Notes under the pieces: model-generated
The model's database searches: none
Told to the model about the DNA's origin: nothing
The model's input: only the letters and a program-made list of their open reading frames with translations
Origin: an uncultured Christensenella sp.
GTDB lineage: Bacteria; Bacillota; Clostridia; Christensenellales; UBA3700
Reading direction: 5' to 3'
Assembly (NCBI GenBank): GCA_910583735.1
Contig: CAJTXS010000001.1
Coordinates: forward strand, 80,402-144,401
DNA length: 64,000 bases
Position numbers and translations under genes: made by a program
In this document: in pieces, positions 22,200 to 64,000 of the stretch
How the letters are laid out: each line of letters starts with the position of its first letter
Numbering within the stretch: the first letter of the stretch is position 1

Positions 22200-22240
22200 A
22201 ATAACAATTTTTTGAAAGTACACACTTTCGGGAGGATGTA

Positions 22241-23116: not shown

Positions 23117-23164
23117 TTTTTTTTGACAGCGTTATATCTATATGATATACTTATATGGCAATCA

Positions 23165-23240
<76 letters not shown>

Positions 23241-23247
23241 AGAATGA

Positions 23248-23292
23248 CTCGGAACAAGATAGCGATTTATTTTGTTTCGGGTTTTTCTTTTT
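23248..23292 (+). terminator. Probable terminator after the tRNA
   Basis: CTCGGAACAA (23248-23257) pairs with TTGTTTCGGG (23272-23281), with two wobbles, followed by TTTTTCTTTTT. Confidence 0.5.
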
Positions 23293-23569
23293 ATGCGAGA
23301 TAGGGGAACATCGCCGGTATATTTCGACGGCATAAGCATCGAAAGTAGCTTGATAGTCTGCATATAATCTTATTCGAGGTTACATTGTGGCAATTGAGTG
23401 AGTTAAAGGCGATGTTAAATTTCGCAAATTCTTAATCTTATTTATCAGTAAATATAAATTATAAAATGTTTATATATAGGGGTTGGTACAATAAAAAATT
23501 GCCGACGCTCGAGGGCGTCGGTTTCTTATGACTTCTTGAGCGCATACAGGCAGACAAGGAGGTTATATA

Positions 23570-31025: not shown

Positions 31026-31115
31026 ATGGGAAGCAAGAAAGGCAAATTCTTAGCGTTGGCGATTGTGATCGTTATGCTGGTAGCGCTTAGCGGGGCATTG
31101 ATATTGTCCGCATGC
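31026..31115 (+). other. Sec/SPase-II lipoprotein signal peptide of the giant protein
   Basis: The n-region is KKGK, followed by a 20-residue hydrophobic core and lipobox L-S-A-C, with the Cys codon at 31113-31115. Confidence 0.75.
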
Positions 31116-52100: not shown

Positions 52101-52751
52101 ACTATAGTCATCAATATAGCGACTAAGTTGCCCGAGTATGTCACGGTAAGAGACGGCGAGGCGGATACGATAGTTGTACGTCCCTACGACCACTATCTGT
52201 CGCTTGCAAAAGGCGACGACAGCTTGGCGGCTCTGCCCGGAAGTATCACGGCGCATTACGCTAACGGTACGTCCGAGAATATATCCGTCAGATGGAAGAA
52301 CACCGATGGCAGATACGTGCGTTCCAATTCGATAATAACCGGTTGGAATACCATGGGCGCCGAAGGTAAGTTGTATGTGGAGAACGATGAGGTCATCTAT
52401 CAGAAGTTCCACTGGGCTTACGGCAGAGATGACTTGCGCGGCAAAGTAATCAATTACAAGATGGAGTCGGGCAGAGTCGTCGGTATGATGTTCGACTTGG
52501 ACGGAGACGGAGTGTACGAGTCTGCTACTCCCGACATGAAGAGTAAGCAGGTCGATGCTCAGGTCGAGTTCTCGGGCGGATATAAGATGATATTGCCGGT
52601 AGCGCTCGACATCATAGGCAACAGACTTATCGGTTATGTCGGCTATGACGTGGAGGCGTACAAAGCCAACAGTCTGAATATCTGCGACTACGAAGGATAT
52701 AGCTTTAAGCAGGCATTCAGCATTACAAAAGATGCAAGCAGCTTGTTCTGA
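31026..52751 (+). CDS. Giant surface lipoprotein, 7,241 aa (InlB-B repeat + unassigned supermodules + Fn3-like units + Ig-like C-terminus)
   Basis: A single open frame runs to TGA 52749-52751. ATG 31026 is preceded by an AGGGAGAG SD. The signal is MGSKKGKFLALAIVIVMLVALSGALILSAC. Recognisable domain signatures recur throughout. All long antisense ORFs in this region lack any such features. Confidence 0.9.
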   Translation: MGSKKGKFLALAIVIVMLVALSGALILSACDSGVTVIFDAGAGTFESGNSIMTLNNVAPGTVINLKDYNPKNGGQKFVGWDDESLMSYTDEYTIPSDAKGVIKLTAKWRAGNSGGGSGVLSPLFSVLNSISKGDKINTHIKGSGISGGKEYGLEYISNISRGLGNNALDYDLGFQLTEDGTPKLGIYIVDIQGAAGGLFIDTKPSDPDSKPIYIEDFNMDYLLSVAEKLPSFLQELLNSQSLVSGIIDGVVLSMFMSVNTTTSGSVTNYDITISPLKLVNGLTSLLENPLIAGVVGGFLSSIDLNPLLTWLKDNVPDVDFIVRAGVNSAGQLAGNIELDLIDNSVGESTFTFNTAQLTHGTYDSETLSLVPDKVNNYVAWSLGNIKLSANLDLSTAGNNVDVGALINTFVPGTLPQGLILLDANLGYRLDAIIDIDIKQANPAEDKNLIAIELYEKGKYGSENAILGVYYRNGSLYINIGNILNKLPSASGNGEVAKLWSGKGIKISGLNLNELVGAIKQRAVSEIDKLFGTDHGKIEQSGMESTLKMLTQHDSVMALSVDEEGETYISPGWGNFISMLFKVLKIDGEYVDVTNTADGGELALTINNNLIDSIMAALKGLIPNFGGIDLPDIGEGKLFIKVNKYGLESIGIDHTIGGINLGLSLSDFLLLQPIMFGDDDAQQDFASYIDSCVGDESGYTTSINELINEVLYGGIKGSINLDLSFSGGEYNLSELLSMFGLSLGDIKIKIDNPNAKIALGLDFGLYIDENNPDRDSALYLELVAREPVYLENPDGGTALINEGIILGIYLYKDAIYLDASNLKILNLEMPIYKLDNVGAGSAIEALLAQLPNLDLNLDLSGVIESIKGNPNAGEGEAEAAAALAELTKDSGGVLSTSQVMSNSGAIALYLGSDAIKLSATVGAIFTLLSTFNVNLGFDINDYIQGEIPLEIEYRDGKLSLKVTANLLSTVDGKDSNLTLALGIDLADVNIAGCKQEIKERVDNVGSDYINQELDDYVIKGLLNAVLDTQISINIMLKQGRLDVLKLVDYLLTTLKVSVSLSDLDLDGSIGTDSLEATLNIKLAMSNSDNPIMGIELIAGETGSAGVLFSLYLDKNNAYIDLNVLGLGKYKVSNTGLMGMLTDLLDGFSESVSLKGLLNLDSLLDVSKTIALKAITSVNAGTTVVWNRYGQANDIYYNVYGVTPGVNGAADTVEAIAMGVTHNDASIFVDGKFMIVDADNRYGYYRVDVCTLKNGNEKVIVSATASAEDFDYGAKAEYSKDIKSTDISWNVYNGKYKYAVTQIGSDGQSRDVDISSAVIEGGVFKFTADATGVVSYKVRVFIPGEDITVDEFTFAVTKVDSDKPQEPAAIDVAINDIARSVSWSGVEGASYYEVSLAIAGAAAAEWTTKVSAGGNLTTKWYNEYKNYSITVVAYDKDGNKITEGASSTSYNIIDALLSGLTINNGIIGLEITGKVFGDILANLIGENYRIEILDVALRDVNIFTGTADLELNIYDSIGPDAGKITVSAGIAISPTDVDALAADVEAMNAEGSGYSEIDFAFGGNVVKGIWDLFDEGVMLGMDLEIKFAKGSYNLSKLFAMFGDNLASMLENGPVWTFEADTSVKLELKLGIILDDISKLSEEARKKLPQGMLKAPQIMLSIGFPQGLVLGNDVAIKPNSSIDVFLNYEGLSIDLSGISILGLTLPKYRAEGFDFFGFLNGYLLKLEQMIGAQYNPDGLVIDAANSSVITSGDTSALNLKWKSYVGAEGYSYVVNKAGAESSEEVKLGKDATSATIDVTGLKDGDNVTLNVLDTMGNAYASAIYYAKIVDGELTFELNVGQARMARAQGDDVSLMITKDKLSLMITSQALLSIIKLVYGDKIDIDLPDLDLTIFGEIGNIDGVTGILLKVVGDLIKPEGYVGTDPTLEMSLKLYFDSGEAVKNLNIGDKYAAFIAAADNAGSKLISGLLDSLFNTSFSLYIDLAAEQGFDIIDVLNMFIGDKIDLSTLNLDTIVNNNSGNKLLELKLTTSGSYSDFEQVAILLQINYMGKELIALAVRDGDAYLDLSGIGAGVIKVTDSSTPLTANIKKMLDDMIGKIEIDIEEKLNGLLGIGKPQQGNVSTLATGGADQAANAAAPIDTSSLIAAIIDMVVINDSVIKLYATSEMIKGLLNQFFSISLNIELNGDIDIFNGEAQVNVSLKDSADKAITLSLGLSINAMTNAELSALEQDLDGRAASFDGVVIDLSNIVGSVADLLNGLDLSIELDVNFGANDNVNLWDVIGVILTSLVKADGAVNDVFEALGEQGFRWQLDTATDINLKLKLATDIRTKTVNGEEVIDEETSAIVVGLIAGTDLTIGYDATDNNREVIIKQGEGIYLVIKGGKLYIDLSCVHILGLTLPVLRADNFDVMSYLTGIVGDVKQAVDKIFGGTVRSEAEGGDEAATVGSSEMALDGGSDGSILIGQDITFSIGLKAVLSLLSEMGLVDLTALKLDWNIVATTGVQNGLLKIAIEHNGESTPIIGFNAALTLGVKLRGEADQEADAERADLLDKATGADVRYADSTSNVIDAMLNKVLNTTIKLGISAHSASDKFNISRLLSQLIGLIATGSNGLDSSKAFNIDVSDLERLELTITLSGKADNLSQLSAMIRIDSVYKNYQGVDVNNKILAIYVDSGNLYADLSALLSNVNIIKINNSAIMNILSDTLNKLLSGVNLDLNDIINIKPKAQQPDGGASLAPAAAADANALDVAELIKSVAKIVRLHNTSIALEASTDAIDQLLFGMFGIHLDVLDVNGAIYLINGRAELNANIYDYDGNALTVGLGLSIAENGIDETAALKSAIAHAEATAVELDFTNGKTLAQTVLDVLGGVSLQLDVKVQLPEGVFGIGDLLSGFGIDIADANAFELIISGGDLRLDASLIAKAAFDYDNPNNTTVMLEVVMNSDAVFGAVGGEDNIVFHAGDRILGIYIKGSELYVDLSSLTLLGIELPVYYTANFNIQGFINYLLNKLIGGLDSMIFGEFAVNAEYSDSATKMVWNQVDGADAYLVKVNGEKVGTVLADAEVDGKYAFTPAADKLTGIYTVEVVPMVKKAVEGSEQFNYVEMGGRIGKYTNAFNLYTSYGADGSANIAWDRISGAQFYTVKVNGEKIADTEETSIVIDNLVGGEVIEVVPYKTVDDVVQAINDYIGRIVFKTSQAPVSTVAGIDDLDVNELFLLGISRDQINIKLSLDAVQAILQALNLDVALGGYDAVIDITLKPNQDWLSLSFESNLGEAYGGTNASGEIALSVFDIYNGDALDGFKQSLASDSIWDILASKKDNAYSNIVDGLLDKMLNLSATLDISVSGDTALNLRNVLNSVFSQIDQLKDLSITEDIMLELSGLDLQLALNLGIDLSSVNNTVISIALNDMRGGKNNLLGIHLFQGKLIIDATGIAFGRYVIDGAELFQGLFDMLNGAISGLRNATDMDGLLDMLYGLVDKTPEQTGDSISMADTEEKGNLPAGTHSIAVRVSTDANAGTTTFSWDSVPTAMRYRLMLYSGYDLTNKTNLIREADFMPAGLDICNTVRETSVTFSTAALNKIGFIKDSMSPFDGVLQSGYYYFVVEAVRKYGADSVEPIYSEDGLVINGGYTNFSVLKSILSMVKIKNDKISLTASAATINKLLAGTLGINFDWASVVLDIDLFDGIGNLDFTVSDGDRAVIADNVTLQKNATSVELGWDTVENADYYEINITDISGKNKIDTVQVHSGDMTVSGNRASYSVDATAYPWLLTKELRYRVSAIFDSVNTAVINLTLATGDNGREKAVEAMKENGILVEFGENSDYTIAPEIPSLSEINGVSIKQFVEGILSVVRLEASLDIFISRGSYNISSLINSLLEKLNLNVEGLDESGIVWTLTDDLRFTIDLKLLFSLGATAEDTKFVLEVSSGGLSLTEADGSVIGVINEGLLLGLYYQNGNAFVDLSNVTLLGIQMPCYTFDIDVHGLLTDLIDSLFKDFDFSVLGKGLSVNVEGNANGDRYATWNNYSKSAEYKVEVFKAVDGADGALSWVSAGSVTAPAGATRANITSLVGRDSRYKVEVTAFDAEGSEIAKDEKICGVEAQEQRMSLASDMDSLDMRQLIMLGISSDKLHLEVTTKAVASLLASFISGNETVAMITDILGLFDLRLVGEWQAKEALTLKLQGDLFNTDFKPVAVACDNVSYVVSDDLRGVTFTWDEIDAADGYELTIKNSSDVTVATAKSDTNSVYVPFDSIFTQAVLAPNGGSWSAVGIVENPLNVTLKLHTEKLLNPDEMGKVPEEIDGILAGVDIDKAKEEYGSKLIAGLLDKIYNLDLSIALDFSQVDGFSLSEVLSVMVGNLILGATGISVGELTDALDLRLSTDATTVALDIMLNVDRVNPADTNIAIQLSSVIGGYNKDILLALYIYSNKLVVDMRAIGLRAYEIRNLEYIVSLQEELFGLIDSLIGDIEIDITEVIGGLLNPKNDVNGDNNGGDVSDEPGVGDSALGEETLPSIGVRVVNSRDSEGNRVTALKWNDVDGAVKYVLTMPAEDGSKTEITLSGNEYEFVSSASVYGKPYEVKIEAYNADDVLIAVGSRGANGVIASLLNALSLHNSIIRLDVTSDILDTILSTLLKDISINMDPIDSLDANIDIFNGNAEAKINLVLKQGETGAVVNNLVLGATLGLAMAPELYKVDSTTGISDPDTVIQKSLDAIGEVTVVDLGVGDPAGRIANAIFSALSTSSLSVDISVAFNAGTYDLAELLKSFGLDILGDTHLYWTFNRDTEIALTLELSARISPNAYNDSLLLFDIKAGNDIIFPAVSLGGKNYGEFRIDAGDSILSVFGRSNTNGTSYIYLDLSGFSVLGIPLPVLRAEYNFGRMIINEIYDLAAKITGQYKPEIFYEADDQGNMRLFWEAREFGVEQIKYDFKVVNADNNAEIVNIKGSEFLNGSNVVDTSYVLGKDKVATRMNVSITAYFEYTLTDGKPARRIVAENTAFIDLSSQAEVAEYSADDVNKDTQDKGLDILDTVKLEYTGLNKARASWLAKEGVVAYEIYLVSSGTGARIPMSRDVAEQGKATVIGAGRVEGYDTLGINGDGIKPGTEISIEIDTSPLFASAGSALGRYQSMFASGLSAPAPSIGDVNSSEDYYGYYIVVNCYGNVKETEDSETPAVDKYELVARGAADSYGAVNVNFVPKSGAAAGKGNYIISWDNVPGAVRYSVLPYYSRKNITSAGMTVDYIAVGKSSSAASGYNLSDLLVTGNFVNIYNVDYSGAYNIELCAYDTYGNIVGYSVVTNSIKANGGKLVPMAVIEIIAKADQLGIVVQLDAVAAMLDAFGVSLGSFDLGALDLEAAVGLKTYVERVVKPTDVGADKVDSVDVYGAHLKGLNSGYEYTVKITHTNEGRLISEKEYSLNSDYSGKMDVEFIMNALGEYNFCVFDNSGAKVIDFTSRTLKKYCLDVVGDLMQNVNTAGAVVNAGETSGSVTAAINSGALSYTWSAIEGATNYSVRVDYFKDLSVSGAPDATETKSVSGTSMQSSLSLEQGSYLVTVTAGNGASSGKYIQVMFTVGSNKQLASNAGKVLGQIGVTTDGRLIYWNAMSGAYTYGLDICERENGKIVKSAVYDGLTGTVHSVTLNHAGSYDVIVRGYDADGNMLPDIYSAHIDVGGRSDFVINATVSYDDIVIGGGESDYNNLSNLINTKANAYHSGDYATTVRMLMFNYLQDVGLGLKLDLSATQTVINMADMINKIFNAVNGTSPIGAPIRLDIKGIRDMGMTLNLEWHLDYTRNSTTQMVTGINGQGTTLKVELNYYEGNNTKTLLGFYLKDRSFYIALQGLGLFNIKMSSNRMINNLTGTLYSVLDNLTQKLDDTIDGALGTDAGDGIDFSVLLKALLGEYAEIDLGSIIVGNSVLETDELQPVAKSESLQDMDISYIITKLLGVVSLENSSLLVNATSAIIDTVFADLLGVELGLDLDLSVLVGILNGDIAASLRIDNVTIQAELDLHINDGSDYSGLTVPNMNFIDLNVEQSSGTQLAMSLIASSGLNLSIDLSNASVESIAFYNYDADGAYRFGYPAAVRVSVEALNEDRTISENLNGSMQVERGGLLVTLVGIDTNEYNTKGAGTTLPLAYVYISPNDSLTVKLAKGWFIIEANAIGINVTVDLGDNLYASSMESLIRSFVPAGTFPVTISVPNLGIMNTLGGLLDKVINLIIGDESSSGNTGDVTEEDTSSGTGETVVDYGIKVYAYGSNNPVVEGSTFRIEHNRATNADGVAFDGYNLRVMRADGYELLNVTYPASATTSGGKYGYNVNFNWYEDYRIVVEGYMNKTGFDKILGELDIWALLGGNRKGSNPATLPTGGAYPTAEAWTEDDFGITAALSGTGNFNLSVDFDTYYLNKLIDDIMDLVFGANTILDLSSMGLRHNYLSHTWWDRTSRSSTWLNTMDFGSNGSRMAMQFDPTSTLDSISVQLMPLLADALELININIDVSVGPAIKIKLNGPAIRAGDDNLKSNETMANLNRIFMHLLPFAVWNTASLNVSLIDGTIANISFDGEDKGLAVRDENGRVLTHEVQTFYGKYNEGESRDQYYYDTGKPDDYTYSNMSGRGGVRKLTSNGRTKTSTVVRNGKSYTAYGYTVTYNAVGVAGSNSGGLQYSGAISNTAGTSGSRMNLDFTYVRTGSAIINRSTQSGTGFNTGSDSSQWGKPMGTTFVVGQNDIAPFHTKIDIYNGSASVGNSSTTTDHTSGIVSWGGLPAYVEYDPLAMGDAYAAADYMMKRYFLSGLTARYQLGSSFARGQITYAVNGATLTAANLASALSSSNEVTVVATAVFGGSVGSKSLSIVVHRNTSTIVSIDKVKMHYFDSLPQYVVVTTSEGKRKKYDVTTNRNKVGDENKVLLTDYDPATVSAAQGATVKAKLTFVDGTVSNLFEIEYVDSTLSLENSKELDLYSFNNIDDVVSAINGIKVTYADGDAVLSDDMTLGNGGSGSNMQVYSAKAGRWIALGNWASSVLDIKGDTIYIPVSISQNAGDWGSGRLSQSSTIVINIATKLPEYVTVRDGEADTIVVRPYDHYLSLAKGDDSLAALPGSITAHYANGTSENISVRWKNTDGRYVRSNSIITGWNTMGAEGKLYVENDEVIYQKFHWAYGRDDLRGKVINYKMESGRVVGMMFDLDGDGVYESATPDMKSKQVDAQVEFSGGYKMILPVALDIIGNRLIGYVGYDVEAYKANSLNICDYEGYSFKQAFSITKDASSLF
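31125..31349 (+). other. InlB-B / Listeria-Bacteroides (Flg_new) repeat
   Basis: VTVIFDAGAGTFESGNSIMTLNNVAPGTVINLKDYNPKNGGQKFVGWDD...IKLTAKW fits the ytVtFd..GG......G.....P...G..F.GW......L.AkW pattern. Confidence 0.7.
32418..48545 (+). repeat. Array of divergent protein-level supermodules (about 6 copies; 13 copies of the core motif hLGhYh..G.hYhDLS)
   Basis: Core motif codons start at 32418, 33432, 34341, 36060, 37170, 38139, 39012, 39903, 41253, 42840, 44247, 45507 and 48447. Two flavours alternate. I noticed no near-identical nucleotide repeats. Confidence 0.7.
51500..52330 (+). other. C-terminal Ig-like (Big_4-like) region of the giant protein
   Basis: LP..V.V....G......V.W-type strings are present: LPQYVVVTTSEGKRKKYDV (about 51573), LPEYVTVRDGEADTIVV, and LPGSITAHYANGTSENISVRWKN (52233-52301). 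The assignment is tentative. Confidence 0.4.
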
Positions 52752-52761
52752 TTGATACAAT

Positions 52762-52790
52762 CCGCGGCGGATAGCCTATATTCGCCGCGG
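52762..52790 (+). other. GC-rich hairpin without a U-tract directly after the giant gene
   Basis: CCGCGGCG (52762-52769) pairs with CGCCGCGG (52783-52790) around a 13-nt loop. It is followed by AAAAATAAGG, not a T-run. Confidence 0.6.
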
Positions 52791-52838
52791 AAAAATAAGG
52801 AAATTCTTAATTAAGGGCTTCCTTATATAAAATAACTG

Positions 52839-52847
52839 TGCTATAAT
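52839..52847 (+). promoter_or_regulatory. Candidate extended -10 promoter for the second giant gene
   Basis: TGCTATAAT (TGn + TATAAT at 52842-52847). The -35 is weak (TTCCTT, 52819-52824). It lies 129 nt upstream of ATG 52976. Confidence 0.4.
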
Positions 52848-52975
52848 TTATACGGGTAGCTCCGTATAGAGATGCCGATTTTTGCATTTATCGGATTATT
52901 ACGGCGCGGTCGCGGCGCAGGAAAAGGCGACAGATAAGCGGAAGGGTATAGAGATATATCGCAGGGAGGAAAATT

Positions 52976-55900
52976 ATGAGTAAGAGCAGACGTTATGCTT
53001 TAATAGCGGCGGTTACGGTAGCGGTGCTGGTTATATGCTCCGTAGCTGTTGTCTTACTGACGGACGGTAAAGGGTCGAACGGCGACGGAGGCGTAATCGC
53101 TTCGGGCGCTGCAACGACTGTTAAGACTACAGCCGGCAGCGTTGACAACGATTACTTAGTTAAAGAATTTCTTAAGCTGTACAGAAATCCTCAGGATAAG
53201 ATACTCTCAGACGGCTCTCCCTCCGTTTGGTATACTCAAAAGGCAAATTCTGCTACAAGTATCTATATAATCAATAAGACAGGATCTAAGACTCCCGTTC
53301 CAAATGTTCAGGCAGGACAGCAGGTGCCCTCGATAATCAGCGGTCATGAGTGGTGGGCATTCAAGTCTGGAAGTGTGACGTATGTCGTACCTATAACGCG
53401 CGCGTCGTCCACGTCGATATGTTTTACGCTCGATAATTTCCTTACTACGCCTAATGTATATACTTCCGCCAATACGTACGCGTTGATTGAGGAGGACGTA
53501 ACTTATTCTCCCAGAGTAATCAACAGCGTTCAATATAACGACACTACGGTGTCGCCTTATAACTTCAATGCGACTCTCGACGGCGCGGGACACAAGATAA
53601 CCGCATCCGAAGCATACGAGATGTCTTTGACCATTAACGGCGGAGATGCCGGCTCGAGACTTAATAAGCCTTATATTACTTGGGGTACTCAGGGCGGCGG
53701 CGGATATTCCGATTATCATCTTAATGCGCACAGTATGTTTATAGGCAATATAGGCAGGGGTACGCTTAAGAATTTCACGCTTGACGACGGCGGCTACAAC
53801 ATGCGCATAGTTCAGCACAATAATACTACCGCAGGCGGAGATACCACCGTAGTTAACACGGCATACGGCGCGCTTGTAGGAGTTGCGGGCGTATATAATA
53901 ATAAGGCTGCCGGCGGTACGGACGGCGATCCCAATGATCCTTACGATTATTCCAACAGCGCGCGCTCCAATATCAACAATGTTAATCTGCTCCTTAACGG
54001 CGACCATACTATGTTCACCCGGAATGATGGCATGAATATGGCATCGTTGATTATGGGCGGCGCTGTCGGTTACAACGCCAACTGCAATATCGATAATCTT
54101 ACCGTCACTATCAACGGTAGGATATCTCCTTATGCGTTGAGGCAAGGACGTCCCTCGTTTTCCTTGGGTTTCAAACCCGCTACTAAATACGACATACTCG
54201 GCGGAGTGTGCGGAATATCTGCTTACAGCGGCACATTTAAGAAGGTAATAGTCGCCGGCTCGGGCAATCTGTTCTGCGATTGGTACGTAACCGTAAAGGA
54301 TGCGAGCAGAGTTGCAAACGACTTCGGCGAAGCTGCCGGTATTGTATTCGGTCAGATCATGAAGCCTACTACGGCAGAAGGCGTAATTATAGATTTCCCT
54401 TATAAAAATATTTGGTTCCGCAATATAGGAGGCAGTTCTTCGATATGGGATATTATCGGACTGTTTGTGGGTAGAAAAGGCTCGGTTCTCAACTCTACCT
54501 CATACTCCTTGACATACAAAGATATTTATTTGACAAACAATGTTTTTGCGGGTATTAACGATGCTAATTTGCCGGCTAATAAATACGATGCGGTCGGTAA
54601 CGGAACGTCTTATACATGGGAGCCCGGTTATATGGGTAAGACATATCTTGACGACGGTACAGTTACCGATCACCATAGCGCGGCTACCAGCATAACGATG
54701 CCTATTAGATTCAATACGGATGAGCCGGATGGCACGCCCTTTACGGTATGTTCGGATGATATTACCTCGATCGGCTTCTCGCAAGATGCCAACTATATGA
54801 TAGAGATCGCAGCTAACGGCAACGGTATCGTATGGGACGCTACATGGAATAACAAGAATGGCACGGTATACAATACCGCGACATCCGGACATTCGGTATA
54901 CGACCCGGTATATGTGCAAAATACGGCTACCGGAGTTAAGCTCAAGGCTTACGGACAGTTTTCGGGTACCAACTCCAACGGTCGCAATCTCGTCCTTAAC
55001 GTATCCAAGGGCGATTCTGCCACGTATTCGTTCGACAGCGGCAGTATAACTAAAGAGTATAACGGCAAGGCTATCGATTATCCCGACCTTAGGGTCAAGA
55101 TGGCGAGCAACAACAGCTACAATCAAGACTTCCAACAGATATTTAACGGCAGAAGCGGCGTAATGATGCACCTTCCCGTCGACGATCAGACGGTAGGAGC
55201 TGTAGGTCCTAAGATATTGGATTCTTCAGGCAACAATGTATTCTCCGGAATATATAACGGAAAGACATATTCGTGGCAAGGCTCTATGGACGCCAACAGA
55301 AACAGTATCGGGCACGCATATTTTGCCAATATGTACTCGTCTGTGCAGAAGTATATCCCTTCTTCCGGTCTGTATACCAATGTAGACGACAGCGATAATG
55401 CTACGGCAGAGTCGAGCAGGAAAAAGGCTAAAGACGCTGGTAAATATAAGTTTAACGTAACTGCTGCCGGCGCATATATAGCGATGAGGATAGGCACAGG
55501 GTCTTCTACATATTACATGTTGCTGACTCCCGACGGAGATTCGTCATTCGAGTATGTGGTCTCGCCCAAGTCCCTCGGAATCAATCTCGAGACGCCTGAT
55601 ATCAACTACAACGGCAATAGCGTCAACTTCCAGTATGCCGGCGACAACCCTACCGCAAGGGCAAGATATTCGCTTACGGGAATATTGGCGGGAGACGATG
55701 TTAAAGCCGATCCTACCAAGATAGGTTATTACAATTCCAACGGCACGTCTATTACGCAAGCCGTCGATGCGGCTACATATAGATTGAGTGTAAAAGGTCT
55801 TGTAGGCACCGACGCAAGCAACTACACCATCGACGCTATACAGAACTTTACCGTTCATCCGCTCAATGTGCAGGTTTCGCCGGGTTCGATTGTAATTGAT

Positions 55901-58900
55901 TACGGCAATACCGTTGCTTCTCAAGCGGAATTTACGGGTTATACATATAGGATTACCGACCGCAACGGAAATGCTGCGGAGATAACTGCCTTGCCTTCAG
56001 GCGTTAATATGCTATTCGACGCAATGATAGAAGAGGGTAAATATCTGTTCGGAACAGGCAATACGCAGTACAGGGGCAGACTTAATGCCGGCTCATATCC
56101 TATATATCTGCGCGGTATTACGTTTAACGACGAGTCGCAGAGAAGTAACTATGTCATTCTCAATGACATGCTCGACCCTTCCGGTTCCGGCGCGTCGAGA
56201 GGTACGCTGTATGTAAATAAGGCTGCGCTTACGCTTTCGCAGGTAACTCTGCCTACGGGACTTGTATACGGCGACAGTTACGGTAATCCTACTTATAAGA
56301 TTACAGGTCTTGTATACGGCGATACGATAGACGCTGCAAGCGAGAAGTGGATATATGATATTGCATCTAACGGGATAGGTTATCTCTCCAGCCCTCGCGC
56401 CGCAGGCGATCATACGGTCAGCCTCGTAGACTTCAGCATAGGCGGAGTGTCCGTTTCTTCCGAGAACGGCAACTATGTCTATTCCGACTCCGCTGTGCGT
56501 ACCAATTTCAACATAGCGGCGAAGCATATCAATCTTAATGTCGATTTCGATACCGCTACCGTATACAGATATAAGGGCTCGGCATGGGAGTTCGCTACAG
56601 AGATAGCGGCTAATGATGTAGCTTATCCTACGGACGATCTCAAGACGCCTATAGTATTGCAATCGTATAAGGATATCAATCATACTCAAAGCGCAGATAT
56701 AGAGAATGTGGGCAAGTATTACCTTGCTGCATCTTTCAGCGGTAGCTACGAAGCCGTCAAGTCTGATGGAAGCCGCGTGCAGGTTTCTACCGACGGCTCA
56801 TACATTTTCGACGCATTGCTCGATACCAACGGGATAGAGTTCGACACCGTTGATATACACAAAGCTACTATTGCATTCGTTGGTTTAAGCGAAAAGCAGA
56901 CTGTAGTATATAATGACGAGATGCAGAAGTTCGCATTTACTCGCGACAATATTACAGCGCTCAACGACAGCGATGCGGAAACGCTGTACGCTATGATAAG
57001 AGTCGAGTATAACGGAGCTCATGAGGTTGACGGCGTCGAGACGGCAGGCACGTACAATGTTACGCTTTCGCTCGAAGAGACAGCCAACTATGAGTCTGTA
57101 TACAAAGAGGGGCTTTACTTCGAGATACAGAAAGAGGATATGACCGTTGTTATCAACGGCGGCAAGGACTTCGTCAAGGAATATAACGCCAATATTGTTC
57201 CAGCCGTAACGGTTACCGTAACAGGTAACAATTCGGGAGTCAATGTCAATACGCACGAGTTGCAAGCCAATCTCGTATCCACGGTATTCACCGATTTAAG
57301 CGGTGTAGAGGTTGCTTCCGCGCAAGCCGTAGGCAACTATATAATGAAAGTGAGCTATACGGGTACTGTCAACAGAAATCCCGCTACAGCAAGCATCAGA
57401 GTAACCGTCAATCCAAAAGTATTGACTTTCGCGCTGTATGATAGCGAGGGCGAGAATATAGCAGACAGCCGCAAGGAAGTGCGCACCTATAATAAGGCCG
57501 CGTACGAAGCGGATTACTCGCTGCTCGGAGTAGTCGCGGGTGAGAGCGTAGTACCTACCTTTGTATTCAAAGGAGAAGACGGCAGAGCGCTATCCTCCGC
57601 TCCTATCAATGCCAATACAAAGAAGTCTAACGGAGTATACAATTCTTATACGGTAGAGGTTACGTTGCCTTCGACATATTCCAACTATACTATGTCTAAG
57701 GTTACCTATTCGTTGACTATCGAAAGATATGTTCTGTCGGTAGACTCCCTCACGCGTACGTCTTATGCTTTGCGCAACGGCGGTATGTATACGCACGATG
57801 ATTATATCGGCTGGATAAGCGAGTCCATACGTATGTACGATGCGGACGGCACTGTCTTCACCACCGAGCAGCTCGATCAGATCATGCAGTCTCATACCAC
57901 AGCGGGCTCGTATGACGGATTTATGTTCGAGTTATACGGTTCGTCCGATCACAGCACAAGCATTACGGACATAATAAGCCAGTACGACGACTATCAAGGC
58001 AATCTGCACTTGCATATTCTCGTCAACGAGGCTGTACTTCAGCTTGCGATGTTTACGGACGGAAATTACGACGTTGCGTCGGATGCAACCGTTCATGTCA
58101 ACGCAATCGATATCACCATCCTGCAGATGGGTATTATGATTACCGTCGACGGAGAGGACGGCAATAAGGATATCACTCGCGTCTATGACGGAGGCGACTT
58201 CAAGATAGGCTTCAGACTCTTTACCTATAATGCCAATACTTCGTACGGAGCGAGCATCGATGCCGGTAACGGTGAGATTATTCATTCCAACACCGAGTAT
58301 AAAGGTATAGACACCGTCATATCCTTGCAGATAAGCGTCACAGGTAAAATCGGTAAGAATACGCCTTTCTCCGAGAGCATATTGCTTTCGCCCGGTACGA
58401 GCGACTTCGCTAATTTCTTTGCTCAAGACGGCGACGACATTGTCGGACTTGTCGGCAAGGCTAAACCTATCCATGCAGGCGTATACAACATCAATTATGT
58501 GCTAAACGTAAGTTCCATGCCTCAAGGCGGCAGCGTGCCTTCTACTTGGATTATGCAGACCACTACAAGACTGGTCATCAATCCCGTGCAGGTGACTCCC
58601 GACGGAGAACTTGCGGATATCACTATAGCATATCACCACGTTATAGATAATGCGCTGCTCGAGAGTTCCAACAGCAACGATGTTTCTTTTATCTCGCAGC
58701 ATAAGGGTCTTATGATGCAGTATTCCTCCGATGTCCTCGGCATCATGCCCAATGTCGGAGAGTATATCTATAATGCGACGCTGGCAATAGATCCCGATTA
58801 TGTCGGACCCGCGATATTGCTCAGCGACTACGATCTGCATGAGAATGAAGGCAAGATAATAGTAGAAAAGCTCAACGTCAATGTAAGCGTAGGCAACCTT

Positions 58901-61900
58901 GAGTTCGTGTACGGTACCGATTACAACAGGCTGGTAAGCGACTTACTTACGATAGAGTATACCAACGAGCCCGAATTCTGCGACGGAACAGATCATGGGG
59001 AGCTTATATCGAGATTCTTGTCCTTGATGTTCAACACAGACAAGGTCAATCCCAATGTCGGATTACATGAGGGAATGATAGAGCCTAAGTATAGCAATCC
59101 CGGCACCAACATCAACTTCGTCACGGTTAAGAAAGGCGACGTTACGGTCACGGCTAAGCCTTTGGTGATTACCTGGGGAGATAGGAGCGGCGTATACGGA
59201 ACAAGCGATATTGCGCTCGGCTCTTATACAATGGATACTACGCTCGTCATCGGAGACAGACTGTCATCCGCTTCCTCTGCAATAGTGTATAATGCGGGAG
59301 CCGAGATTACGGATATTTCATCACTGTCCGTCGGCGTATACAGTTACGGATATGCCAAAGTGGTCTTTGTAGATCAAGACGGCGAAGATGTGAGCGGGAA
59401 TTACAACATCACCAATCAGAATAAAGGTAAGTATACCGTAAGTCCCATTCAATTACGCGGTAGCTATGTCAAGTCGTTCGAGCCCTCATATACAGGTTCG
59501 GAAATAACGGATATATTTACCTTCAAAGTGTCTGACAGTATCACTATTCCCAACGGGGAAGAGCTCGTATGGCAGATTAAGTATTATGCGTCCAAAGATG
59601 ACGTGACGGCAGACGGCAACACCGTGACTGTTGCTGCGGTAGGCGATTACTGGGCGATGGCGCGTCTCGTGTCTGTAAACGGCGGAGCGGGCAATGTCAA
59701 CAATTATGCGCTCACGGATATAGGCTGGTCGCAGTTCAAAGTATCTAAGGCCAATCTTACTCTGTCGTCTATCGACGGATACGATTCATCGTTCAACGCT
59801 ACTGCTGTATATAGCGGCAGCGCGGACAATAAGCTGTTCGGCGCAGGTGCGTTACATCTCACATTCAACAACGGTAAACCGTACGATGCAGATGTGCACG
59901 GCGCGTTGACTGTTACAATCAGCGCGGTTTGGACCAAGGAGACAGGCACTAAACTTTCTCAAGTATTCGATGCCGGCGAATATGCAATTACCGTCGCCGT
60001 AACGGGCGCAGATAATTTTGCAGACGCTACGTTTACTAATATTACTCTTACGGTCAATCCTGCGCAGATAGCAAGAGACGACATATTCAACTATGTCTCG
60101 GTTACTACTCCTGCGGACGGATATGTATACAACGCTTTGCCTCAACATCCCGAAGTAGCTCTTAAGTCGGGCATTACAGGCAGTATATCCGTTAGATATT
60201 ATGAGGTAATCATCCTTTCGCTCGAGGAAAGAGACGATACTGTTAACGCAGGCGATTATACCATAAGGCTTACGTTCGACAGCCGTAATTACGTATACGA
60301 CGACTATGCGTATCTGAACAATGCTGTGGACACTTACTGGACGTATACTATTAACCGTTCGGATAAGATTGCAGTCAATATCTCTACGACTGAGCAATAT
60401 TACAACGGTAATTCGCAGCGTCCCGACGACATCCTTATCACCCTGCTTGCAGGTACCGATCAGGCTAAGACGATCAGATATCCCAGCTCGGAAGTCGACG
60501 CTACGCTCTATTTCTATGAGAAGAGCAGCGGCGGTAACGGAACCTCGACTATAATGTACAATAATAAGTACTATACGTATAAGGTCGCTAATCCTCCGAT
60601 AACGAGCGTTGTCGCTAAGCCCGGCGATTACTACGTCATGCTGCATATCAATCAGATCAATGACGGCAACTTCGTCAATAATATCGACGCATATTATGTC
60701 ATTAATTCGGGCGCAGATCTCGGCGTATACACCGTCAAGAAGGGCATAATGTCCGTATCCGCTACAAGAAATATCGAGAAGCAATACGACGGCGTCGTCG
60801 GTATTAACGGTAAAGACGTGATTTACGAAGAGGGCGGCAACTGGTATATCAATGACGAGATAATATCCATCGCAGGCGCTTACGATTACAAGTTCGGCAC
60901 CGTCACTATCGATGTAAGCTACTTTGTCGAAAACGACGGCGAAAAGGATATATACACAAGACTTTATCGCTGGACATGGTATTTGTCTCAGCGCTATGAC
61001 GGAGACGGCAATCCAGTCAACGGCATGCTCGAGCAAAATAAACCTGTAAAGCACTACTATTCCAGCGGTGAGTTGGGTATAGAGACGCAGACCGGACCGT
61101 ATAAGAATGTATTCGATTTCGCATTTGCGGGCAAGTATAAGATAGATATCGAAATTGACAACTCGCAAAGCGCTTATTACAGTCAGGCAAGAGAGATTGT
61201 CTTTGACGAGGACGGCAACAGCAGCGAGCAGAATGTCAACCATCATGCAAGCGGCGGCGCAACTATTACGCTCAATAACTCCGCATTCTCGATAGCAGAG
61301 GCGGACAGATTGACATATTACAACGATTACAGCGCGTCTAACGCTCCGCTCAAGGCTAATCCCAACCATTACTTCCACGGAATAGCCGGCGAGGACAGCG
61401 GCGATGTGATCAGAATAGACGGCAAGGACTATAAGCAATTCAAGGATGCGAACGGCGACGGCTATGAAGATATGTTGACTTCCGACCTTACGTTCGAGTA
61501 CTTCACGGATAGGGCTTGCACCATCGCTATAGCAAGAAACAATATCTATAATGCCGGTAAGTATTATATTCGCGTGACATATGCCGGCGACGAAATCAGA
61601 TACAATTCCTCGACATGGTTGATTGAGTACATAATCAGACCTGCCGAGTATTGGTTTGAACTGATAAGCGACAGCACAGAGGAGTACGAGACTGAGTTCG
61701 GTACGGCTTTCGACCTCAACAAGATGTCTATCGGACACGATATCTCGCCTGTGGAAGGAAGAGGTAAGAACACGCAGTTCGAGAACAATGTTCGCAATTT
61801 GATCAGCGTACGCAACGAGGGCAAGAGCACTTACAACGGCTATGCCACTCCCGTAGGCAAATATACTATATTCTACGGATGGACATGGTCGGTTGCCTCC

Positions 61901-64000
61901 AACAATGAAATACGCAACAACGTCGAGTTGATAGACCTCTCCAGCTCCGACTCCAAGACGAGTATTACCGTTAAACCGGCGCAACTCGTATCAGGCGTCA
62001 ACTCTACGCTCGACAGAGACAGATTGCCTGCGGGCAAGGAGTTCTCCGCTGCGGTGACTTCCGGCGCGTGGGAGCAGGAGATCAGAAACAGCATTGAGAT
62101 TACGATGAACTATTTCGACGAGTCGGGCAACGTCGTTGCCGGCGGCGAAAAGTATAACGTAAGTCAATATACCTTCTCGTATACTTGGAATAGGACGGGC
62201 GAGGGCGATTATGCGGTAGTAGACGGTATCTACTCGGTAGGTAAGTATAAGATAACAGTCAATATGACCGACCCCAATATTTCGGGATGCGACTTTGTGA
62301 TAGACTTCGAGGTCACTAAGGCGATTGCCAATGTAGAGATAGGTGAGACGGGCTCTAAGGTGTACGATGCGAAGGCATGGAATGTCTCGTATAAGATTAC
62401 TACGCCCGAAGGCTCTATCGACAGAGATATCACATCGGAATTCGGACAGGGCGATATACATGTCACATACTATAAGGACGGTCAGATAGTAAGCAGCGTT
62501 GTCGATGCAGGCGACTATACTATAGAGATATATGTCGACGAAACCGACGACTATGCTCGGTCCGATGTTGCAAGCGCGACATTTAAGGTAAATAAAGCCA
62601 ATGTAGACATCAGCTACAATACAGGCTATGTCAACAACCAGGAGTATATCGGTAAGTACAACGTAGACGCGGACAATGTCGCTACTATTATGCTTAACGG
62701 CGAAGTATATGCCGCCGATAAAGCAAACAGATATATATTGTATATAACATGCGAGGACTGGGGATACAACGGTAGCGCTTCGGCTACGCAGATAGTTAGA
62801 GAGTATGCTCAGGCAGTAGCCGGCGGCAGCAGTATGTATCTTACCGACTGGCTCGATGCCAATCATCCCGAGATATCCTACTTCAAGACCGACACAGGCG
62901 TATATAATGTCGGCAGCTATTATCCCGTTATGCTGTATCTCGGAGACAACAATGTAGATTACTCCGTAGATATAACGGCAGGAACAGAGATCCCCGAGGT
63001 AGTGATATACAGAAGGGCGATATCGGTCAATGTCACAGGCGGTCTCTCGTATTGGCTCACTTACGGCGACGAGCGTATTAATCCTATGGATATACAGCAG
63101 GCGTTTAACCGTGCGGACTGCACATATTATGAGGTCGTGGGCTATGTCGAGGGCGACGCTGTGCCCGAGGTAAGATGGACGGTAGCAGACCTGGATAATA
63201 CTTATCAGGCGGGAAGCAATGCGGGCGAGTATACAGGCGCGTATTATGTGCAGGGCGAGTTGTCCGACAGCGCAGTCAACGGCAACTATTATCTCGAGGC
63301 GGTGTATGAGGAAATCGATCTGTATGTCGCAAGACAGAAGTTCGTACTTGACTCCAATGCAATGTCCGCATATCTTGCAAGCGAAGGCGATTCTGCGCTC
63401 AGCGTGCAGATTATCGACGGCAAGGCTACGATAGACAGGGTATACAGCGGCAATGCTTATTCCAATATAGCGTTGGCTTACGACGGAATTTACAATAAGG
63501 ACGGCGAAGGCGTAATTACGGCAGGTAAGGATTTGTATGACAAAATCATCGTTCCTCCCGCAATAGCGACATATTCGCTTACCGATGTGGGCAGCGTTAC
63601 CGCTATGTTCACGATGGAGCTTAAGGATATCGTCAATTATGAATTTATGAATGCGGCTGAATTCATAGATATCTCTGTCACTTTGAATGTCAATAAAGCG
63701 GATGTAGAGGTAAGGCTTAGGGATTCGTTGTCATTCAAGGACGGCGAGGGCTATGACGCAGCGCGTAATGAGCTCACTTTGCAGTATGTCGGTAAGGCAT
63801 TCAACTTCGCCGATTACTTCGAAGTGAGAGATGTCACCAACGACGTCGAAGTAGTCAACGGATTTAAGAATATTATTTGGAGCGTAGATTTCGGAGCTAA
63901 TGCCGTGCCTACGTTGCCCGGTGTATATAGCGGAATATCGCTTGTGGTGCACAGCAATAATTACGACGTAAAGATAGGCGGAGTAAGCGCGAATTATGTC
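52976..64000 (+). CDS. Second giant surface protein, partial (at least 3,675 aa; runs off the window): N-terminal TM anchor, GLUG-like region, MBG-like repeat array
   Basis: ATG 52976 sits 5 nt after a GGGAGGA SD. MSKSRRYALIAAVTVAVLVICSVAVVLLTDG is a signal/anchor. I translated 52976 to about 56340 codon by codon and spot-checked 57041, 57326, 58502, 59969, 60002, 62504, 63002 and 63962; all were in frame with no stop. It is missing from the ORF track only because no stop occurs before 64000. Confidence 0.9.
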   Translation, partial: MSKSRRYALIAAVTVAVLVICSVAVVLLTDGKGSNGDGGVIASGAATTVKTTAGSVDNDYLVKEFLKLYRNPQDKILSDGSPSVWYTQKANSATSIYIINKTGSKTPVPNVQAGQQVPSIISGHEWWAFKSGSVTYVVPITRASSTSICFTLDNFLTTPNVYTSANTYALIEEDVTYSPRVINSVQYNDTTVSPYNFNATLDGAGHKITASEAYEMSLTINGGDAGSRLNKPYITWGTQGGGGYSDYHLNAHSMFIGNIGRGTLKNFTLDDGGYNMRIVQHNNTTAGGDTTVVNTAYGALVGVAGVYNNKAAGGTDGDPNDPYDYSNSARSNINNVNLLLNGDHTMFTRNDGMNMASLIMGGAVGYNANCNIDNLTVTINGRISPYALRQGRPSFSLGFKPATKYDILGGVCGISAYSGTFKKVIVAGSGNLFCDWYVTVKDASRVANDFGEAAGIVFGQIMKPTTAEGVIIDFPYKNIWFRNIGGSSSIWDIIGLFVGRKGSVLNSTSYSLTYKDIYLTNNVFAGINDANLPANKYDAVGNGTSYTWEPGYMGKTYLDDGTVTDHHSAATSITMPIRFNTDEPDGTPFTVCSDDITSIGFSQDANYMIEIAANGNGIVWDATWNNKNGTVYNTATSGHSVYDPVYVQNTATGVKLKAYGQFSGTNSNGRNLVLNVSKGDSATYSFDSGSITKEYNGKAIDYPDLRVKMASNNSYNQDFQQIFNGRSGVMMHLPVDDQTVGAVGPKILDSSGNNVFSGIYNGKTYSWQGSMDANRNSIGHAYFANMYSSVQKYIPSSGLYTNVDDSDNATAESSRKKAKDAGKYKFNVTAAGAYIAMRIGTGSSTYYMLLTPDGDSSFEYVVSPKSLGINLETPDINYNGNSVNFQYAGDNPTARARYSLTGILAGDDVKADPTKIGYYNSNGTSITQAVDAATYRLSVKGLVGTDASNYTIDAIQNFTVHPLNVQVSPGSIVIDYGNTVASQAEFTGYTYRITDRNGNAAEITALPSGVNMLFDAMIEEGKYLFGTGNTQYRGRLNAGSYPIYLRGITFNDESQRSNYVILNDMLDPSGSGASRGTLYVNKAALTLSQVTLPTGLVYGDSYGNPTYKITGLVYGDTIDAASEKWIYDIASNGIGYLSSPRAAGDHTVSLVDFSIGGVSVSSENGNYVYSDSAVRTNFNIAAKHINLNVDFDTATVYRYKGSAWEFATEIAANDVAYPTDDLKTPIVLQSYKDINHTQSADIENVGKYYLAASFSGSYEAVKSDGSRVQVSTDGSYIFDALLDTNGIEFDTVDIHKATIAFVGLSEKQTVVYNDEMQKFAFTRDNITALNDSDAETLYAMIRVEYNGAHEVDGVETAGTYNVTLSLEETANYESVYKEGLYFEIQKEDMTVVINGGKDFVKEYNANIVPAVTVTVTGNNSGVNVNTHELQANLVSTVFTDLSGVEVASAQAVGNYIMKVSYTGTVNRNPATASIRVTVNPKVLTFALYDSEGENIADSRKEVRTYNKAAYEADYSLLGVVAGESVVPTFVFKGEDGRALSSAPINANTKKSNGVYNSYTVEVTLPSTYSNYTMSKVTYSLTIERYVLSVDSLTRTSYALRNGGMYTHDDYIGWISESIRMYDADGTVFTTEQLDQIMQSHTTAGSYDGFMFELYGSSDHSTSITDIISQYDDYQGNLHLHILVNEAVLQLAMFTDGNYDVASDATVHVNAIDITILQMGIMITVDGEDGNKDITRVYDGGDFKIGFRLFTYNANTSYGASIDAGNGEIIHSNTEYKGIDTVISLQISVTGKIGKNTPFSESILLSPGTSDFANFFAQDGDDIVGLVGKAKPIHAGVYNINYVLNVSSMPQGGSVPSTWIMQTTTRLVINPVQVTPDGELADITIAYHHVIDNALLESSNSNDVSFISQHKGLMMQYSSDVLGIMPNVGEYIYNATLAIDPDYVGPAILLSDYDLHENEGKIIVEKLNVNVSVGNLEFVYGTDYNRLVSDLLTIEYTNEPEFCDGTDHGELISRFLSLMFNTDKVNPNVGLHEGMIEPKYSNPGTNINFVTVKKGDVTVTAKPLVITWGDRSGVYGTSDIALGSYTMDTTLVIGDRLSSASSAIVYNAGAEITDISSLSVGVYSYGYAKVVFVDQDGEDVSGNYNITNQNKGKYTVSPIQLRGSYVKSFEPSYTGSEITDIFTFKVSDSITIPNGEELVWQIKYYASKDDVTADGNTVTVAAVGDYWAMARLVSVNGGAGNVNNYALTDIGWSQFKVSKANLTLSSIDGYDSSFNATAVYSGSADNKLFGAGALHLTFNNGKPYDADVHGALTVTISAVWTKETGTKLSQVFDAGEYAITVAVTGADNFADATFTNITLTVNPAQIARDDIFNYVSVTTPADGYVYNALPQHPEVALKSGITGSISVRYYEVIILSLEERDDTVNAGDYTIRLTFDSRNYVYDDYAYLNNAVDTYWTYTINRSDKIAVNISTTEQYYNGNSQRPDDILITLLAGTDQAKTIRYPSSEVDATLYFYEKSSGGNGTSTIMYNNKYYTYKVANPPITSVVAKPGDYYVMLHINQINDGNFVNNIDAYYVINSGADLGVYTVKKGIMSVSATRNIEKQYDGVVGINGKDVIYEEGGNWYINDEIISIAGAYDYKFGTVTIDVSYFVENDGEKDIYTRLYRWTWYLSQRYDGDGNPVNGMLEQNKPVKHYYSSGELGIETQTGPYKNVFDFAFAGKYKIDIEIDNSQSAYYSQAREIVFDEDGNSSEQNVNHHASGGATITLNNSAFSIAEADRLTYYNDYSASNAPLKANPNHYFHGIAGEDSGDVIRIDGKDYKQFKDANGDGYEDMLTSDLTFEYFTDRACTIAIARNNIYNAGKYYIRVTYAGDEIRYNSSTWLIEYIIRPAEYWFELISDSTEEYETEFGTAFDLNKMSIGHDISPVEGRGKNTQFENNVRNLISVRNEGKSTYNGYATPVGKYTIFYGWTWSVASNNEIRNNVELIDLSSSDSKTSITVKPAQLVSGVNSTLDRDRLPAGKEFSAAVTSGAWEQEIRNSIEITMNYFDESGNVVAGGEKYNVSQYTFSYTWNRTGEGDYAVVDGIYSVGKYKITVNMTDPNISGCDFVIDFEVTKAIANVEIGETGSKVYDAKAWNVSYKITTPEGSIDRDITSEFGQGDIHVTYYKDGQIVSSVVDAGDYTIEIYVDETDDYARSDVASATFKVNKANVDISYNTGYVNNQEYIGKYNVDADNVATIMLNGEVYAADKANRYILYITCEDWGYNGSASATQIVREYAQAVAGGSSMYLTDWLDANHPEISYFKTDTGVYNVGSYYPVMLYLGDNNVDYSVDITAGTEIPEVVIYRRAISVNVTGGLSYWLTYGDERINPMDIQQAFNRADCTYYEVVGYVEGDAVPEVRWTVADLDNTYQAGSNAGEYTGAYYVQGELSDSAVNGNYYLEAVYEEIDLYVARQKFVLDSNAMSAYLASEGDSALSVQIIDGKATIDRVYSGNAYSNIALAYDGIYNKDGEGVITAGKDLYDKIIVPPAIATYSLTDVGSVTAMFTMELKDIVNYEFMNAAEFIDISVTLNVNKADVEVRLRDSLSFKDGEGYDAARNELTLQYVGKAFNFADYFEVRDVTNDVEVVNGFKNIIWSVDFGANAVPTLPGVYSGISLVVHSNNYDVKIGGVSANYV
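55545..64000 (+). repeat. Array of about twenty MBG-like repeats (protein level, period about 90-120 aa)
   Basis: The recurrent pattern is [AV]G.Y.h.h........NY........h.[IV].[KP]..h.h. Examples: TAGTYNVTLSLEETANYESVYKEGLYFEIQKEDMTVV (57041), AVGNYIMKVSYTGTVNRNPATASIRVTVNPKVLTF (57326), DAGEYAITVAVTGADNFADATFTNITLTVNPAQIA (59969) and DAGDYTIEIYVDETDDYARSDVASATFKVNKANVDI (62504). Confidence 0.65.

Follow-up and report, generated by a model that had tools for sequence, protein, structure and literature searches.

The DNA analysed here is a 64,000-nucleotide (nt) stretch of an uncultured Christensenella sp. (contig CAJTXS010000001.1 of assembly GCA_910583735.1, positions 80,402 to 144,401), which we call the window. 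Its 3' end is occupied by a giant gene on the forward strand (52976-64000, +; codons 1 to 3,675) that is truncated by the window edge and appears to encode a surface protein built largely of divergent repeats. The original prediction, made from the letters of the window, had placed the start of this gene at an ATG at 52976 behind a GGGAGGA Shine-Dalgarno sequence, and had described a frame that stays open to nt 64000 and ends on a codon boundary with the residues NYV. Our translation agrees on each of these points. The interval holds 3,675 codons and no stops, when about 196 stops would be expected from base composition; 200 and 224 are found in the remaining sense frames. Its length of 11,025 nt equals 3 x 3,675, which makes the window edge a codon boundary, and the last residues read ...NYV. 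The Shine-Dalgarno sequence (52964-52970, +) lies 5 nt upstream of the ATG and is conserved at the orthologous locus of a second species (L006). Furthermore, the closest upstream in-frame stop is a TAG at 52949, nine codons before the ATG, with no alternative start codon in between, and three relatives begin with the same residues, MSKSRRY.

The gene is missing from the open reading frame (ORF) track supplied with the window because it runs off the end, and the track omits such genes. For 52976-64000 the track reports only antisense ORFs, which the original prediction had dismissed as spurious. Six of them are long (window 53207-62866, minus strand; up to 710 amino acids [aa]), and all six occupy the codon-aligned antisense frame. 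Stops in this frame arise where the sense strand uses TTA, CTA or TCA, and these codons are scarce (10, 3 and 14, respectively, of the 3,675), so that the frame contains only 27 stops. The antisense ORFs are by-products of sense codon usage and not genes.

Long ORFs on both strands, together with three word-indexed homologue searches that returned no match and the failure of any database domain to reach its threshold, could be taken as signs of a decaying pseudogene, or of an artefact of assembly or ORF calling that arose from composition or collapsed repeats. This explanation is effectively excluded. In addition to the missing stops and the account just given of the antisense frame, contigs from four independent metagenome runs cover 52500-64000 and differ from the window by substitutions only, with no indels. 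Neither the stop nor the frameshift that the original prediction had left room for occurs in any of these assemblies. The 37 listed strain differences within the gene comprise 30 synonymous changes, 7 nonsynonymous changes and no stops, and third codon positions account for 30 of these single-nucleotide polymorphisms (p = 3e-9). A more divergent strain, recovered from an RNA assembly, has indels only in pairs that compensate each other in frame (+2/+1 within 6 nt and -1/+1 within 4 nt). Against a colinear orthologue of 78% identity, the ratio of nonsynonymous to synonymous substitution rates (dN/dS) is 0.098 over 3,671 codons, with dS at about 1.5. Taken 300 codons at a time, the gene gives ratios from 0.07 to 0.16, with constraint weakest over the first ~600 codons. 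Self-BLAST found no near-identical internal repeats that might collapse during assembly. Finally, nearly the full length of the gene is represented in contigs of four metatranscriptomic runs. In the X30 metatranscriptome, for example, a single 8.5-kb contig has its start at 52929, which is 47 nt before the ATG, and two of the four metatranscriptome assemblies are interrupted between this gene and the giant gene that precedes it. The gene is genuine, is under purifying selection along its full length, and is covered by RNA assemblies.

The sequence occurs in many mouse-gut metagenomes. Proteins encoded by neighbouring genes in the window are identical to proteins in NCBI, ENA and Logan assemblies labelled as "Clostridia bacterium" metagenome-assembled genomes (MAGs), which supports a Firmicutes (Clostridia) host. 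Relatives of the protein are few. An exhaustive HMMER search with residues 1-1200 against 1.84 billion representative proteins gave five matches, of which three are true relatives, all of them fragments (75%, 47% and 46% identity). The remaining two, both WD40 proteins, were rejected; each of these had many matches to one short stretch, reflecting a chance similarity to IVWDAT. Nothing was returned from the word-indexed protein collection for the N-terminal 900 aa, the C-terminal 700 aa or the repeat profile described below.

The 90% cluster of the best fragment includes MDE6550780.1 (P0051), a protein of 4,477 aa that is annotated as a hypothetical protein and has no Pfam match on record. Its residues 1-3676 are colinear with residues 1-3675 of the window protein at 78.3% identity, with five gaps of 1-3 residues, and it runs on for 801 residues beyond the point at which the window stops. 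The claim that the gene is giant and still open at the window edge is upheld. The locus is syntenic as well, with a gene for ~7,246 aa, a 223-nt spacer and the 4,477-aa gene in the same order. By orthology, the window gene would have about 4,475 codons and would end approximately 2.4 kb past the window edge, giving a product of about 490 kDa. Searches for the missing end were negative: the exact 61-mer from the window end was absent from the genome and metagenome contigs searched, a protein-guided locus search of genome and metagenome contigs with the last 400 aa found nothing, the 90% clusters of the genes downstream of the orthologue had no member from the lineage of the window, and 10-kb flanks recovered around window proteins fell short of the gene. 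The contigs of X1 and X5 run on for about 18.5 kb beyond nt 64000, and the locus is also present in MAG GCA_949840785.1 (contig CATKXP010000001.1). The protein is acidic (pI ~4.5), has only 11 cysteines in 3,675 aa, and shows the surplus of G, V, S, T, N, D and Y that is typical of beta-rich secreted proteins.

The protein begins with an export signal or signal-anchor (aa 1-28; 52976-53059, +), in which MSKSRRY is followed by a hydrophobic segment of 21 residues. Hydropathy on the Kyte-Doolittle scale reaches 3.05 over aa 9-27 behind the positively charged n-region, as expected from the transmembrane (TM) or signal anchor that the original prediction had read there, and the segment is conserved in the relatives P0001 and P0003 as well as in P0051. 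There is no lipobox ([LVI][ASTVI][GAS]C) and no obvious AxA cleavage site within aa 1-28; Cys21 sits in the middle of the hydrophobic segment (LVIC-SVAVVLL). In this respect the protein differs from both large surface proteins encoded nearby, which carry a lipobox (LSAC followed by D, and VAAC followed by N). The signal points to an extracellular location.

Behind the signal lies an orphan region rich in G, N, T and S (aa 29-746; 53060-55213, +), which is a candidate for a functional "head." It had no match in Pfam, NCBIfam or PHROG, and a profile of the region found no relative among solved structures in the Protein Data Bank (PDB). Profile comparison also revealed no similarity, apart from the signal peptides, to the GLUG lipoprotein or the upstream giant encoded in the window. 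An AF2 model of the N-terminal region was unusable (pLDDT 31). This is the fastest-evolving part of the protein, with a dN/dS of 0.15-0.16 compared to 0.07-0.10 elsewhere. The original prediction had noted GLUG-like strings here. The strings exist, and one of them is a single marginal match to Pfam GLUG (PF07581; cutoff 20.5 bits) at aa 361-380, IMGGAVGYNANCNIDNLTVT (54056-54115, +). This motif, of a family whose members usually carry several consecutive motifs, scores 21.1 bits when presented as a peptide of 40 aa. Its score drops to 16.2 bits within a stretch of 250 aa, and it goes undetected when the protein is scanned in 500-aa pieces or as a whole. The second quoted string and three other glycine-rich strings were not recognised by Pfam GLUG. 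As a positive control, the GLUG segment of the protein encoded at 1469-4687 scored 39 bits over three stretches.

Most of the remaining length is repetitive. Specifically, we delimited 17 profile-supported units of ~85-105 aa, all-beta by prediction and resembling MBG domains, between aa 747 and 3209 (55214-62602, +), starting at aa 747, 972, 1185, 1300, 1391, 1759, 1874, 2063, 2177, 2276, 2366, 2488, 2643, 2800, 2892, 3042 and 3118. The gaps at aa 854-971, 1068-1184, 1482-1758 and 1959-2062 contain more degenerate modules. Degenerate modules with similarity at the level of motifs also fill the last 466 codons (aa 3210-3675; 62603-64000, +), where examples are AGEYTGAYYV...NGNYYL at aa 3416 and PGVYSGISLVVHSNNYDV at aa 3648; this part had no Pfam match, and the window cuts through one of its modules. 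A core motif, xGxY-h-x-h, occurs 21 times in the protein, mostly at intervals of 84-128 aa, compared to 2.0 +/- 1.5 times in shuffled sequences, a ten-fold excess. These counts agree well with the roughly twenty [AV]GxY...NY repeats that had been reported from about 55545 onward. Because the repeat profile was bootstrapped from motif-anchored segments, it is circular for its own seeds, and we relied on two controls. In a leave-one-out analysis, about 11 of 18 units scored above every shuffle, and the profile matched shuffled sequence 0.1 times. In the independent control, the profile recovered a unit in the GLUG lipoprotein at 1469-4687, which had not been used as a seed (E = 1.7e-15). Identity to the reference unit is only 12-33%, and self-BLAST of the protein detected no repeats, which indicates that the copies are old and divergent.

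The repeats had been assigned to MBG, a domain associated with very large adhesins, and this assignment is weakly supported. Pfam sets gathering thresholds of 23.3 bits for MBG (PF17883), 25 for MBG_2 (PF18676) and 25 for YDG (PF18657). The whole protein had no match in Pfam or NCBIfam even at E <= 1. Scanned in 500-aa pieces, it gave MBG_2 scores of 16 and 10.8 bits, both below the cutoff. Isolated units matched MBG in 2 of 18 cases (best E 9.5e-4) and MBG_2 in 1 of 18 (E 3.5e-4), while two gap segments matched YDG (E 0.0044; 17.7 bits, below the cutoff) and MBG_2 (E 0.027). When searched against PDB sequences, the 18-unit profile aligned with the Lar_0958/CmbA repeat 4ng0 (E = 0.004) over 75 of its 96 positions, and also with the "aGxYxI" strand of filamin repeats; the 4ng0 sequence itself scores 70 bits against Pfam MBG. 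A low-confidence AF2 model of a unit (pLDDT 59) is all-beta with eight strands. In addition, the 17 units and the degenerate modules form a tandem array from aa 747 to 3675 behind an export signal, which is the arrangement characteristic of the MBG superfamily. What stands, then, is a recurrent sub-threshold resemblance to MBG, MBG_2 and YDG and the match to 4ng0; what does not is formal assignment, as no unit passes a Pfam cutoff. The units appear to be MBG-like in signature and probable fold class, and their membership in MBG is unproven.

The orthologue offers a view of how the protein may end. Beyond the colinear part, its tail comprises further modules, an FN3-like stretch, a helical segment of ~80 aa, a hydrophobic segment (~aa 4263-4287) and the charged sequence RRKKRE, after which a second TM segment follows; the loop between TM2 and TM3 is positively charged. 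In the vicinity of its C-terminus the orthologue has no LPXTG-type motif; elsewhere the pattern matches only at aa 1067 and 2041. Gram_pos_anchor scored 12.2 bits on the tail against a cutoff of 20 and covered only the TM segment and the charged residues, and the tail had no PDB relative and no significant Pfam match. At L006 22853-23434, there is no stop after the TM segment and RRKKRE. In its place, the sequence GAAGGAG occurs 8 nt ahead of an in-frame GTG that would open a signal of lipoprotein type (...KARKSK-TIAVLIAVVCIVIAFTFVMVG-C), with 147 more residues behind it. This 147-aa module can be read in two ways: it may be a small lipoprotein cistron that is fused or nested in frame, or it may be a C-terminal part of the giant that is re-exposed by a TM hairpin.

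The spacer between the upstream giant gene and the ATG is 224 nt long and is 85% identical between the two species, compared to 75% for coding DNA in which synonymous sites are near saturation. Just past the stop codon of the upstream gene is a hairpin, CCGCGGCG-N13-CGCCGCGG (52764-52792, +), followed by a run of A rather than of U. Both arms are identical in the orthologous spacer, whereas the loop has diverged. A consensus terminator scan did not call this hairpin, which is non-canonical as a terminator and may mark a transcript 3' end or serve as a stabiliser. Farther downstream, an extended -10 element, TGCTATAAT (52839-52847, +), was read from the sequence and is conserved at L006. It was not called by a -35/-10 consensus scan because there is no good -35 element, and it is likely to be the gene's own promoter. 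This element is followed by a leader block of 47 nt (52849-52895, +) that starts with the palindrome TATACGG-N6-CCGTATA (52849-52868) and is identical between the two species, with exact matches in L005 and in L006 at 9874-9920 (9864-9920 in L006 when the -10 element is included). The block has no second copy in the window. A riboswitch-type leader was considered and dropped: the leader matches no Rfam family and shows no excess folding stability (z = +0.47). Therefore, a promoter or operator is the reading that we prefer, and an operator or leader element is the likeliest identity for the candidate formed by the block and its palindrome.

The gene upstream of the spacer is itself a giant (window 30915-52751; ATG at 31026). 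It encodes 7,241-7,246 aa on several assemblies, and 5,165 and 5,153 aa on two. Its product has a lipoprotein signal (...LILSAC followed by DSG), its only domain matches are Big_4 near the C-terminus and a weak Flg_new, and it contains none of the repeat units described above. The two giant genes stand in tandem both in the window and at the orthologous locus. At the other end of the window (1469-4687) is a 1,072-aa lipoprotein (...VAAC followed by NG) that MAG records list as a hypothetical protein. Like the giant at 52976, it is predicted to be a surface protein, and two of its segments (aa 255-336 and 404-488; E ~1e-11 to 1e-15) are units of the giant's repeat family. It differs from the giant in its signal, which has a lipobox, and in its GLUG array, which is genuine (39 bits), and its similarity to the giant's N-terminal region does not extend beyond the signal peptide. 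An ORF of 993 aa at 13639-16620 has no Pfam match, a very acidic N-terminus and one TM segment (aa 66-84), and probably encodes an orphan membrane protein. A sialic-acid cluster at 19320-24505 comprises a DHDPS/NanA-like protein, a ROK kinase, NanE and a BNR sialidase. This cluster fits a mucus-associated lifestyle and proves nothing about the giant protein.

A tyrosine integrase gene lies about 29 kb upstream of the giant gene. In one metagenome (SRR14811633; L002 15756-21779), the integrase is adjoined by a prophage-like block with a holin, an RVT_1 reverse transcriptase and large unannotated proteins. Because this block and the sialic-acid genes occupy the same position, the integrase marks a variable insertion site. 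With an integrase and a prophage-like insert in the vicinity, and given that giant repeat proteins sometimes bear C-terminal toxins, it could be argued that the protein belongs to a mobile element, for example as a receptor-binding or tail-fibre-like protein of a phage, or that it delivers a polymorphic toxin. We regard this as highly improbable. The protein has no PHROG match, the GC content of the gene equals that of its surroundings, and the C-terminus of the orthologue consists of membrane segments with no toxin domain. Moreover, the synteny is chromosomal and conserved, and the genes 3' of the orthologue are housekeeping genes, namely, those for ComF, an alpha-glucosidase, a two-component system and mannose-6-phosphate isomerase.

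Our preferred interpretation, to which we assign a probability of roughly 0.6, is that the gene encodes a membrane-anchored, giant fibrillar adhesin-like surface protein of an uncultured Clostridia bacterium of the mouse gut. An export signal, a non-repeat region, an array of immunoglobulin (Ig)-like modules and a C-terminal anchor make up the layout of Firmicutes fibrillar adhesins, and it is on this layout that a membrane-retained fibre is proposed. The protein would be exported by the Sec pathway, and its modules would form a beads-on-a-string stalk of more than 100 nm at roughly 3-4 nm per Ig-like module. Anchorage of the stalk in the cytoplasmic membrane would come from the hydrophobic segment and charged tail at the C-terminus, from an uncleaved N-terminal anchor, or from both, and the orphan N-terminal region would be displayed for binding to host mucus, glycans or other cells. 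Expression would be driven by the gene's own promoter together with the conserved operator-like leader.

Comparison with characterised proteins lends this proposal some context. CmbA is a mucus-binding fibrillar adhesin with domains of ~100 aa arranged as beads on a string, and its repeats are encoded by perfectly identical DNA repeats of ~300 bp that form a macrosatellite of variable copy number (PMC13339910). Like CmbA (Lar_0958 of Limosilactobacillus reuteri, represented by 4ng0), the giant would be a surface fibre of a gut Firmicutes bacterium with tandem Ig-like repeats of ~100 aa, and the two have the signature Y(D/N)G ... AGxYxh ... NY ... h.I.P in common. In contrast to the identical and variable repeats of CmbA, the units of the giant are invisible to BLAST and stable among strains. 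The giant is also several times larger, its N-terminal region is unrelated, and its orthologue lacks the LPXTG motif by which CmbA is anchored. More generally, fibrillar adhesin-like proteins have been defined by their domains, with an N-terminal head and a C-terminal anchor as the typical order in Firmicutes (Monzon et al. 2021; PMC8286594). The giant resembles this class in its predicted extracellular location, its terminal non-repeat region, its stalk of tandem domains and, judging from the orthologue, its putative C-terminal anchoring element, which would be a transmembrane segment and not a sortase motif. The tandem-repeat stalk of a fibrillar adhesin is present. At the N-terminus, where an adhesive domain would lie, there is a non-repeat region of ~720 aa that matches no known adhesive domain. 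The domain-based definition would miss the protein, in which no adhesive or stalk domain of Pfam reaches threshold. The adhesin of Mobiluncus mulieris has 7,651 aa and 51 Ig-like domains (PMC10619420), and it too is a giant Gram-positive surface protein that consists mostly of tandem Ig-like domains and is encoded by one of the largest genes of its genome. However, we found no sequence relationship between the two, and M. mulieris belongs to the phylum Actinobacteria.

Several observations weigh against an adhesive fibre. Neither a binding activity nor a ligand can be inferred for an N-terminal region that has no recognisable adhesive domain and for which modelling failed. If the N-terminal anchor is uncleaved, it would put the "head" beside the membrane and not at the tip of the fibre. 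The similarity of the units to known stalk domains is also limited. In addition to the failure of every unit to reach the gathering threshold of MBG, MBG_2 or YDG, hhalign related the profile to 4ng0 with 50% probability (E 1.7e-4) over only the C-terminal 38 columns, the unit model has the pLDDT of 59 noted above, and a Foldseek search of the PDB with this model returned generic FN3/Ig folds (E >= 0.09; TM-score ~0.45-0.5), with 4ng0 outside the top 50 matches. A fast-evolving adhesin would be expected to show a dN/dS above the ~0.1 measured here. The evidence for expression consists of RNA contigs and not of reads, leaving DNA carry-over possible. Lastly, the anchor of the window protein is deduced from one orthologue in one MAG.

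Some of these observations would be better accommodated if the protein served the structure of the cell envelope, as a membrane-tethered spacer or scaffold that organises or protects the surface together with the 7,241-aa lipoprotein and is perhaps tethered at both ends. Ebh of Staphylococcus aureus provides a precedent. This megadalton surface protein, a proposed structural component of the envelope, is retained by a C-terminal membrane span and a charged tail rather than by LPXTG, and it is built of alpha-helical FIVAR/GA modules. Such a role is favoured by the uniformly strong purifying selection over the full length, by the absence of length variation, indels or copy-number variation among strains, and by the conserved tandem arrangement with a second giant gene, which encodes a surface lipoprotein. 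It is also favoured by the lack of a recognisable adhesive domain and by the hydrophobic character of the orthologue at its two termini, where a positively charged loop separates TM2 from TM3. Nevertheless, the protein differs from the alpha-helical Ebh in being all-beta by prediction, and scans of Pfam and NCBIfam revealed no homology to Ebh-type (FIVAR/GA) or S-layer domains. Its sole family-level resemblance is to the stalk repeats of adhesins. Furthermore, the case for double anchoring comes from one MAG sequence, whose final 170 codons may belong to a distinct lipoprotein cistron. On balance, we consider an envelope-structural role possible, if unlikely. More doubtful is a specific arrangement in which an uncleaved N-terminal signal-anchor and a C-terminal TM hairpin that re-exposes the 147-aa module tether the protein at both ends, and in which it forms, with the adjacent 7,241-aa lipoprotein, a two-giant surface system of ~35 kb of coding DNA under an invariant operator-like leader. 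If true, this system would represent a previously undescribed envelope architecture of uncultured gut Clostridia, made from a domain family that databases do not recognise.

Read as a fibrillar adhesin-like protein, the giant does not establish a new category of biology and is best seen as a divergent example of a familiar theme. MAG records already contain the gene, annotated as a hypothetical protein, and its functional kind is known; what is unusual is its distance from curated families and the scarcity of its relatives. The example illustrates that Pfam, NCBIfam and PHROGs can all miss a protein exceeding 400 kDa whose gene is transcribed and tightly constrained by purifying selection, and that the relatives of such a protein can number only a few among billions of sequences. 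Its units provide a test sequence for widening the models of MBG-type stalk domains. Giant surface proteins are among the least annotated genes of gut bacteria, and they probably determine both the site and the manner of attachment of uncultured commensals in the mucus layer. For an abundant lineage of Clostridia in the mouse gut, the orphan N-terminal region, the repeat profile and the conserved leader identified here offer a target for the study of colonisation.

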